IMG/VR virus record: IMGVR_UViG_2879742664_000009
Length of the DNA: 40,938 nt
Strand: one strand, 5' to 3'
Source: a virus
Lineage: Duplodnaviria > Heunggongvirae > Uroviricota > Caudoviricetes
Positions 32,070 to 33,600 of this stretch are shown here, piece by piece. How positions within the stretch are numbered: position 1 is the stretch's first letter; every line of letters starts with the position of its first letter. Below the pieces are notes generated by a model. The model was not told where the DNA came from and did not search any database. It saw nothing but the letters and a program-made list of their open reading frames with translations. The translations under genes were made by a program, and so were the position numbers.

Positions 32070-32522
32070 TTAATGTTGCTGTTTATAACGCATATAAAAA
32101 TTAATAAACCACTCTCCCCGACATTCAACGCGTTGCTGCTTAACTGTCTGAAAACCATAACGTTCAAAAAAGGGTTTTGCGGTTATGCTTGCGTCCACCG
32201 TAAGTTCGGATTCAGACTTAATCAAAGGTTTTAACAAAGCGCTGGCAACCCCACGGCGGGTGTATTCAGGGTCAACAAATAACATATCGATATAGTGTTC
32301 AACGCAGGTAATAAAGCCGACCAGTTTTGCATTAATGACTGCAACCCGCACTTGTGATTTCGCGAGTTTCTCCTTCCAGCGAGATTCGTCAATCTGCGCC
32401 CAGGCGGCAATTTGTTGTGGTGAATAATGCTGACTGGCAGTCATCGTAACCGCTCTAATGAAAATAGCGCATAGTTGCTGAAAATCGCCAGGCTGATAGT
32501 CTCTTATTTGTATGTTATTCAT
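32070..32522 (-). CDS. yafP: GNAT family N-acetyltransferase YafP
   Basis: 150 aa, [25 protein letters not shown]...; start overlaps the dinB stop (ATGA). Confidence 0.85.
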
Positions 32523-33571
32523 AATCCCAGCACGAGTTGTCTTTCCATTTGCGGGTCAAGCAACGTCACATGCAGCCCCACCAGTCGCACACCGCGCCCG
32601 CCGCGGCGTTCATCCCAGGTTTTACGCGCGGTGGCGATTAAGTCAGCTTTATTCAGCCGCGGCCAGACGTGCTCCTGAGTGGTTTGCTGAAAATCATCAA
32701 ACTTTAATTTCACCCCCTGGCGAGCAATCAGTAAATCAGGTTTCACCTTTGCCAGACGGCGTTCAAGTTCCGGATACAGCCGCTCGATAATCGCTTCACA
32801 TTCAGACCAGTGGTGGATATCTTCCGCCATCGTGCGTTCCACGCCGACGGATTTTCGCAACCGTTCGCTGTTAACGTCGCGCTCGTCAATCCCCTGACTA
32901 CGCTCCCACAAAATGCGGCCAAATTTGCCAAAGCGTTTAAGCAGCATCACCAGATCACACTTTTGTACATCACCGCAGGTTCGTAGCCCCATCGCTTCCA
33001 GTTTTGCCGCCGAGACTTTGCCGACGCCGGGGATTTTTGCCAGTGGTAAGGTTTGTAAAAATGCCGGAACTTCTGCCGGCGTAATCACAAACTGGCCGTT
33101 GGGTTTATTCATGTCGGAGGCGATTTTGGCGAGAAACTTTACGGGTGCCACGCCCGCAGACGCCGTCAGTTGCAGCTCGTTGAAAATCGTCTGGCGGATT
33201 TCCTGGGCGATGAGGGTCGCAGAACCGTGGCAATGGACGCTATCGGTGACGTCGAGATAAGCCTCATCCAGTGACAACGGTTCAATACGCGAGGTGTAGC
33301 GCGAGAAGATTTCGCGGATATGATTTGAGGCTTCTTTGTAGGCGTCAAAGCGCCCCGGAAGCAAGGTGAGATGCGGGCATAATTTGAGCGCCATCCCTGT
33401 CGGCATAGCGCTACGTACGCCAAATTTACGCGCGGGATAATTGGCGGTACTGATCACCCCCCGACGTTCGCGGCTGCCGCCAATAGCAATAGGGATATCG
33501 CGCAGGGCGGGATTGTCGCGCATCTCCACCGCCGCGAAAAAGCAGTCCATATCCACATGAATAATCTTCAC
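32519..33571 (-). CDS. dinB: DNA polymerase IV (DinB)
   Basis: Y-family polymerase, ...[31 protein letters not shown]...; start probably the GTG at 33571 (an alternative GTG is at 33583). Confidence 0.9.
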
Positions 33572-33584
33572 TTTCTTATACACC

Positions 33585-33600
33585 CTGTATATTTATACAT
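33585..33600 (-). promoter_or_regulatory. putative LexA (SOS) box upstream of dinB
   Basis: CTGTATATTTATACAT fits CTGT-N8-ACAG with one mismatch (ACAT), about 14 nt upstream of the proposed start. Confidence 0.5.

Follow-up and report, generated by a model that had tools for sequence, protein, structure and literature searches.

Mobile elements that insert site-specifically into bacterial genes, and recombinase genes that respond to DNA damage, are known from several systems. The Bacillus subtilis elements SPbeta and skin are serine-integrase insertions in the open reading frames (ORFs) of spsM and sigK, respectively. Phage 21 and e14, which integrate at icd through a tyrosine integrase and in one orientation only, supply a substitute 3′ end that keeps the target gene intact, and the integron gene intI is an SOS-controlled recombinase gene with a LexA box at its promoter. 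In Listeria, the serine-integrase element A118/phi10403S is inserted in comK, and its attP, in the A118 study, is an imperfect palindrome of about 50 bp (PMC3556126). For dinB, the gene of DNA polymerase IV (Pol IV), the closest described arrangement is the Escherichia coli operon lacking yafNO: these genes are absent from 40% of sequenced strains and 50% of ECOR strains, dinB and yafP are then ‘always fused’ by a 4-nt ATGA overlap, all B1 strains are of this type, and in CFT073 the native dinB promoter, under LexA control, drives the dinB-yafP operon (Gutierrez et al. 2011, NAR 39:4192; PMC3105422). Here we analyse the dinB-yafP region of a 40,938-nt stretch of DNA (hereafter the window), catalogued in IMG/VR as virus record IMGVR_UViG_2879742664_000009. 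We find that a mobile element was very probably inserted by a large serine recombinase at an attB site within the first codons of dinB, replacing the promoter, the SOS box and the start of the gene, and that the window holds one arm of this element.

The alignment of the window with the dinB upstream region of K-12 breaks off inside the gene, and the window is foreign from 33563 upward. Most E. coli genomes likewise match the window only up to 33562-33568, and a few matches extend into the adjoining gene, annotated as a ‘phage baseplate protein’. The empty junction of K-12 reads ...GCAATGCGTAAAATC-AT-TCATGTGG (also written ...GGTGAGCAATGCGTAAAATC-AT-TCATGTGG); that of the window reads ...GAAAGTGAAGATT-AT-TCATGTGG and is contiguous with a Dit-like gene and the remnant of a tape-measure protein (TMP) gene. 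The junction common to the window, APEC O18 and GB089 is ...AAGAAAGTGAAGATT-AT-TCATGTGG, and the far junction of the element is ...GCGTAAAATC-AT-GATTTTCACTTCC...; in a longer alignment K-12 has ...CACTGTATACTTTACCAGTGTTGAGAGGTGAGCAATGCGTAAAATC-AT-TCATGTGGATATGG, and the window and APEC O18 have ...TATAATCTCTTTGCATGTATAAATATACAGGGTGTATAAGAAAGTGAAGATT-AT-TCATGTGGATATGG, from which GB089 differs by 4 substitutions. At the crossover, AT is the only sequence common to attB and the reconstructed attP, consistent with a serine recombinase, whose staggered cut spans 2 bp. The attP arms, GGGTGCATAAGAAAGTGAAGATT and GGGTGTTTTAGGAAGTGAAAATC, match as an inverted repeat at 17 of 23 positions, as read from the alignment, forming an imperfect inverted repeat of about 50 bp round the core, and both junctions are precise with respect to the empty attB, the state of K-12 and of the majority of 5426 complete E. 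coli genomes. The arm in the window, which we denote End A, is identical or near-identical in GB089, APEC O18, TUM9757, strain H2 and the Shigella-type loci; between the Dit-like gene and the AT core, the non-coding arm measures 67 nt (33563-33629).

The same arm terminates an element of about 12 kb that lies between lafU and dinB in GB089 and APEC O18. In both, lafU is followed by the native dinB promoter, its LexA box and codons 1-4, and then come AT, the gene of a 514-aa recombinase, further genes, TMP, Dit, AT and dinB, so that the native promoter and LexA box remain intact at the far end of the element, facing the recombinase gene. The recombinase contains Resolvase, Recombinase and Zn_ribbon_recom domains (GB089, L001:31824-33368), the composition of a large serine recombinase. 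The element also encodes a small DNA invertase, a replication-initiator-like helix-turn-helix protein, the TMP, the Dit-like protein and several ORFs of no known family; the annotations of the APEC O18 and TUM9757 copies include an HNH endonuclease. In TUM9757, strain H2 and loci L015, L020, L021 and L024 the element is inverted, with Dit next to lafU and the recombinase gene next to dinB. AT is its own reverse complement, and such a palindromic core would explain either integration both ways round or inversion in situ. Ghosh et al. (2003), as that work is cited in PMC3556126, reported the central dinucleotide to be the sole determinant of integration polarity in serine integrases. A converse history, in which the arrangement in the window is ancestral and that of K-12 derived, was considered and rejected: the insert has a recombinase and attP-like arms and is found in both orientations, and the site is empty in nearly all genomes.

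The recombinase is present in 26 of the 5426 complete genomes (about 0.5%), including NC101 and APEC O18. Native dinB upstream sequence adjoins the recombinase gene in 8 of these 26; the other 18 match without it, six of them being NC101-lineage records, and dinB lies under the match in 8 of the 18. A protein search places the dinB-type recombinases in a single tight cluster; the nearest proteins beyond it, from E. coli, Citrobacter and Klebsiella, are at most 39% identical. Among GTDB representatives we found only Clostridia proteins of 22-31% identity, which are uninformative, and a degenerate pattern of the arm-dinB junction had 0 matches in the GTDB species representatives. Literature searches on the element, covering dinB in connection with a serine recombinase, lafU or attB and phage satellites that carry a tape-measure gene, returned no description, which is not proof that none exists; site-specific integrative elements as such are known as a type. 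Within the element, the orientation of the small invertase gene with respect to the large recombinase gene differs between GB089/APEC O18 and TUM9757 (L001 30302-30847, L003 25754-26302), suggesting an additional, internal invertible segment.

The insertion leaves a hybrid dinB gene. The crossover falls at the AT of K-12 dinB codon 5, which becomes codon 4 of the hybrid: the arm contributes codons 1-3 (GTG AAG ATT), the AT core opens codon 4 as its first two bases and the remainder is native. Residues 3-351 of K-12 DinB are 100% identical in the window, and the hybrid protein equals K-12 DinB minus Arg2. Translation probably begins at GTG 33571 and not at the ORF-maximal GTG 33583 or at ATG 33550, because GTG 33571 retains catalytic Asp8 (K-12 numbering), which would be lost from the downstream ATG. 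The Prokaryotic Genome Annotation Pipeline (PGAP) annotates the identical 350-aa product in GB089 and strain H2, as do other gene callers in several genomes; 2166 assembly blocks and at least 1000 contigs hold the exact protein, which one source labels ‘DNA polymerase IV [Shigella sonnei]’. An in-frame GTG-AAR-ATY-AT closes each of the two arms, giving M-K-I-I-H-V-D... in either orientation. From End A, dinB would thereby receive a GTG start, any ribosome-binding site present, a lone TATAAT and a LexA-like palindrome.

Several observations weigh against this account. PGAP picks the downstream ATG (343 aa) in APEC O18 and TUM9757, and the Shine–Dalgarno-like AGGGTG, 9 nt from the GTG, is a weak match. 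Our scans found no canonical two-hexamer promoter reading out of either arm. The 20-mer of the attP junction has 0 matches in IMG/VR, so that no excised or circular form was found there, and none of the element ORFs could be recognised as a recombination directionality factor. In addition, a comparison of 71 nt (arm, AT core and Dit stop codon) shows 5 variable positions, 4 of them inside the LexA-like 20-mer.

That 20-mer surrounds the palindrome which the first-pass annotation had read as a variant LexA box of dinB, and CTGTATATTTATACAT is indeed present beside the dinB start. A bare CTGT-N8-ACAG pattern with one mismatch has 11 matches in the window against 14.3 expected, which is not above chance. 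As the bare pattern is uninformative, we used a symmetrised weight matrix built from 25 E. coli LexA sites of the literature (Lewis 1994; Fernandez de Henestrosa 2000) and a heterology-type index derived from the same sites. Only this matrix, which rewards an AT-rich spacer, lifts the palindrome, to 13.7 bits (13.4 with a flat background) and second place in the window. The 25 training sites range from 12.6 to 27.2 bits, with a worst index of 9.2, compared with 13.7 and 10.0 for the box in the window; the K-12 dinB box reaches 15.2 bits (index 8.6) and the GB089 variant of End A 8.4 bits (index 11.7). Shuffled windows of 41 kb hold about 0.2 sites at or above the End A score, and real E. coli sequence has, by a rough count, one unexplained match of this score per 30-50 kb of distinct sequence. 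All five arm variants carry the half-site ATGT, never CTGT, with TGT and ACAG invariant, so that CTG and CAG do not occur in both halves. Some genuine but weak boxes, such as recN3 and dinG, also lack the C; an ATGT half-site therefore does not exclude binding. The best matrix match in the window is a separate site, AACTGGATAAAATTACAGGG (8877-8896; 18 bits), located 114 nt downstream of metG (6721-8763) and beside an IS3-family copy; presumably it is the known molR/yehH SOS box.

The palindrome had also been described as unusually close to the start codon, a view that rests on the ORF-maximal GTG 33583. Because the homology-supported start is GTG 33571, the spacing is ordinary, with the core ending 13 nt before the GTG as against 16 nt before the ATG in K-12. 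A perfect −10 hexamer stands 8 nt upstream of the core. A two-hexamer promoter scan of 33450-33800 found nothing directed toward dinB, no recognisable −35 and no terminator; since no terminator separates Dit from dinB, read-through is possible. We infer that dinB is transcribed either from a −10-only promoter in the arm or by read-through from the co-directional Dit, TMP and insertion sequence (IS) genes. The native dinB (dinP) operator, CACTGTATACTTTACCAGTG, is absent from the window. Both it and the box in the window have a 16-bp core and an AT-rich spacer and lie 13-16 nt before the start. In contrast, the native operator has CTG and CAG halves and overlaps the −10 TATACT, whereas the box in the window has an ATG half, lies downstream of TATAAT and is unrelated in sequence, being DNA of other origin. 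The palindrome is not derived from the dinB operator, and being half-degenerate it would at best give weak LexA repression. Our literature search on whether dinB is SOS-induced in Shigella returned no relevant work.

The other arm, End B, is wired differently. It carries a promoter directed inward to the recombinase gene (TTTTCA-17-TATAAT), followed by a strong LexA box, ATCTGTATATTTATCCAGTA, of 21-22 bits, which abuts the recombinase ATG in all complete copies (L001 33367-33386; L003 28355-28374; L004 27393-27412); the End B box TACTGGATAAATATACAGAT scores 22.4 bits with an index of 4.2. No Shine–Dalgarno sequence is visible before this ATG. The arrangement suggests SOS control of integration and excision, possibly with a leaderless or poorly translated recombinase mRNA. 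In the orientation of GB089 and APEC O18, which is that of the remnant in the window, the SOS-regulated dinB promoter of the host would also point into the recombinase gene, and dinB would receive the Dit-side arm in exchange. In the other orientation, dinB would lie about 60 nt downstream of a strong LexA box and TATAAT. Judged by its anatomy, the element appears SOS-wired, and integration would swap promoters between dinB and the recombinase gene. A bolder proposal, which we consider rather unlikely, is that symmetric ‘gene-repair’ arms have evolved: the outward in-frame GTG, TATAAT and LexA or LexA-like box would keep Pol IV damage-responsive either way, the dinB promoter and/or the element’s own LexA box would drive the recombinase and couple excision or inversion to DNA damage, the arm would have become a permanent, rewired control region in Shigella, and the element might be an undescribed satellite of, or anti-phage element against, lytic coliphages.

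What the End A palindrome itself does can be read in four ways. We give roughly even odds to a chance AT-rich near-palindrome of no regulatory role, in which case dinB would be constitutive or transcribed by read-through from Dit, TMP or IS genes and SOS control would have been lost. One half-site is degenerate, the scores are marginal and variation in the arm is greatest in the box region; no terminator stands between Dit and dinB, and the upstream genes are co-directional, including the IS transposase ORFs at 36147-37360. Chance accounts less readily for a palindrome that immediately follows a perfect TATAAT and precedes the start codon, where operators typically lie, and an AT-rich spacer that is consensus at 7 of 8 positions is improbable in a given 60-nt stretch (of the order of 3e-4, from the shuffle rate).

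Chance is somewhat likelier than the second reading, a working but weak operator of an element promoter (TATAAT at 33614-33609), which we regard as possible but doubtful, as we do binding of LexA to the palindrome in vivo. In the circular form, transcription from this promoter would cross attP and enter the recombinase gene; after integration in the orientation of the window it would run into dinB, which would keep some SOS control, one SOS promoter being exchanged for another. The box begins 8 nt after the perfect −10, at about +1 to +17 of the putative transcript, and its score lies within the low end of the genuine sites in the training set. TGT and ACAG are constant in the five variants, the changes falling at positions that also vary among real boxes; the box on the other arm is of undoubted quality, the element is otherwise SOS-wired, and the shuffled expectation for such a site is low. 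Against this, every copy has A in place of the C of CTG, which is the most conserved position, the index (10.0-11.7) is worse than that of all training sites, and the GB089 variant falls to 8.4 bits; the real genomic background supplies such matches at the rate given above, no −35 is present, and the concentration of variation in the 20-mer argues against strong constraint as an operator.

An improbable third reading makes the palindrome a part of attP proper, or an accessory or directionality-factor site, read by the recombination machinery and not by LexA. It borders the half-site, 23-38 bp from the crossover centre, and serine-integrase attP sites are imperfect palindromes of about 50 bp (PMC3556126), but it lies mostly outside ±25 bp, and the equivalent position of the other arm (…GACCAGATTATAAG…) has nothing similar; lacking a counterpart there, it is not a symmetric attP element. 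Finally, the original proposal, that the palindrome is dinB’s own operator, altered from ACAG to ACAT by point mutation in a lineage-specific native promoter, can be set aside with near certainty: it draws on a position 13 nt upstream of the start, like the 16 nt of the native box, and on the AT-rich, consensus-like spacer, but no alignable K-12 upstream similarity persists past the AT crossover, the sequence is contiguous with the Dit-like gene and recurs as the terminal arm of the roughly 12-kb element, even beside lafU when inverted, and the true box stands unchanged at the other junction of complete copies, so that alignment with K-12 and other lineages, which yields a different dinB start and promoter, has already refuted it.

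Set beside the known systems, the proposed insertion at dinB resembles A118, SPbeta and skin in its large serine recombinase, small attB within coding sequence, 2-bp crossover and imperfectly palindromic attP. Those elements split and inactivate their target until excision, whereas the element at dinB, at codons 4-5, adds an in-frame start and would allow a near-native DinB still to be made; its crossover is palindromic, and both orientations are found. Like phage 21 and e14, it supplies a substitute end of the target gene, but it uses a serine recombinase, replaces the 5′ end together with all transcription and translation signals, and has two competent arms. Complete copies share with integron intI a high-scoring LexA box abutting the recombinase start; they differ in the class of recombinase and in that one orientation adds the host dinB promoter upstream, and this half of the element is gone from the window. 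As in CFT073 and the B1 strains, dinB and yafP are ATGA-fused in the window without yafN and yafO, but the native promoter, box and codons 1-4 have been swapped for mobile-element DNA. Table 1 lists the features of the locus.

Table 1. The dinB region of the window and the element and IS remnants that flank it.
Feature	Position	Strand	Basis
rtcB (ykfJ-like) remnant downstream of yafP	31623-31851	−	Homology to the E. coli dinB-yafP-rtcB region starts at 31623
yafP (GNAT acetyltransferase, 150 aa)	32070-32522	−	ORF; 92% identical to K-12 YafP
ATGA overlap of dinB stop and yafP start (two-gene form without yafNO)	32519-32522	−	Sequence; recurs in 2569/5426 E. coli genomes
Hybrid dinB coding sequence, 350 aa, MKIIHVDMD...	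32519-33571	−	Translation and homology
Crossover dinucleotide AT, palindromic	33561-33562		K-12 attB aligned with both junctions of GB089, APEC O18 and TUM9757
Element arm End A, putative attP-derived half-site GGGTGTATAAGAAAGTGAAGATT, carrying the new GTG start	33563-33585	−	Junction alignment
LexA-box-like 20-mer, core 33585-33600, CTGTATATTTATACAT / ATGTATAAATATACAG	33583-33602		13.7 bits; index 10.0
Perfect −10 hexamer TATAAT, toward dinB, 8 nt upstream of the box core	33609-33614	−	Sequence
Dit-like ‘phage baseplate protein’ gene, last of the element, co-directional with dinB	33630-34400	−	Homologue matches Pfam Dit_like, 3e-20
Tape-measure remnant, C-terminal 443 aa of about 690, 5′ end cut by IS	34558-35889	−	ORF; homologue matches TMP_3
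IS3-family sequences cutting the element	35900-37414		Short piece, about 35900-36104; complete 1310-bp copy, 36105-37414

The remnant in the window comprises the arm, the Dit-like gene, which abuts dinB in GB089 and APEC O18 as well, and the truncated TMP gene, which is 81% identical in DNA to the TMP gene of the APEC O18 element up to 35835. The short IS fragment that follows is presumably IS911 OrfA-like. No recombinase gene, lafU or native dinB promoter with its box is found in the window. On the other side of the operon, the rtcB remnant is cut by an IS66-family ORF (31186-31536) and a 1310-bp IS copy (29879-31196). One locus (L018, CP099865.1) shares 99.97% identity with the window across 13.6 kb, and several IS-rich chromosomes of 4.6-4.7 Mb have the same layout. 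Because IS activity has removed the recombinase half, the remnant is fixed and immobile in this Shigella-type lineage.

Five 1310-bp IS3-family copies (4020-5329, 12949-14258, 29879-31196, 36105-37414 and 39205-40516) are spread over the window, together with further IS3-family and IS66-family pieces and others that we take to be IS911-like. The IS copies join regions that are distant in K-12: thiM, apbC-metG, a phage tail block at about 16.5-29.9 kb (connector, tail tube, tape measure and DNA_circ_N genes) and dinB-yafP. This is heavy IS-mediated rearrangement of the Shigella kind. Near thiM (1-789) lies a second tape-measure fragment (2758-4014, minus strand, 418 aa), also cut by a 1310-bp IS3-family copy. 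We considered it as the missing half of the element TMP and rejected it, as it is only 28% identical to the TMP of the dinB element and belongs to a different phage-like element.

The coupling of dinB to yafP, the other subject of the first-pass annotation, stands as described. On the minus strand, the dinB stop codon TGA (32521-32519) shares bases with the yafP start codon ATG (32522-32520), giving the reported ATGA, and the clean absence of yafNO is borne out by tblastn, in which K-12 YafN and YafO have no match anywhere in the window at E<=1e-3. Of the 5426 complete E. coli genomes, 2569 match a 121-bp probe across the junction without a break. A YafP identical to that of the window is found in 58,860 assembly blocks, and its gene has the 4-nt overlap with an upstream dinB in each of the 8 loci listed. 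The ATGA-fused operon without yafNO is thus a common polymorphism of E. coli and Shigella, already published in 2011, and the fusion as originally noted adds little to what has been established for the operon since then. What sets the window apart from operons of the type described by Gutierrez et al. is the lack of a native LexA-regulated dinB promoter, the upstream region and box being missing and replaced from 33563 upward.

Relatives of the Dit/TMP module occur outside dinB. The Dit-like gene of the element shares about 90% DNA and 76-81% protein identity with ORF066 of virulent Felix O1-like phages (Felixounavirus); in the phages compared (VpaE1, warpig, KhF1 and LF82P3) ORF066 directly follows the tape-measure gene (L031, VpaE1 5002-8030). 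The element TMP is 27% identical to that of Felix O1-like phages over its full length. As the TMP and Dit module is syntenic with that of a lytic phage, its gene order suggests that the element may be a satellite or an anti-phage element. A core of about 11 kb (Dit-like gene, TMP, HNH and small ORFs) lies with a different large serine recombinase between tonB and yciI in E. coli ET565 (L006, 13448-23638), and the Dit-like gene is found in 495 of the 5426 complete E. coli genomes, mostly elsewhere than at dinB. This looks like a widespread family of elements in which integrases and attachment arms may have been swapped; the literature on this wider family yielded no description.

Together, these results indicate that Pol IV has had its control region rewired by a site-specific integrative element, present in the window as a fixed remnant. 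In the Shigella-type lineage, as in roughly 0.5% of the complete genomes of E. coli, Pol IV stands behind mobile-element DNA with a GTG start and not behind a LexA- and RpoS-controlled promoter. Because the dinB promoter has been replaced, inference from K-12 on dinB induction, stress-induced mutagenesis and antibiotic-induced mutability is unsafe for these strains until measured. The interest of the element would rise if a function were demonstrated for the symmetric repair arms together with the SOS wiring, or for the connection with Felix O1-like phages. As it stands, the element offers a natural example of a serine integrase with a palindromic core that is found in both orientations, and of an integrating element that rebuilds the 5′ end of its target gene.

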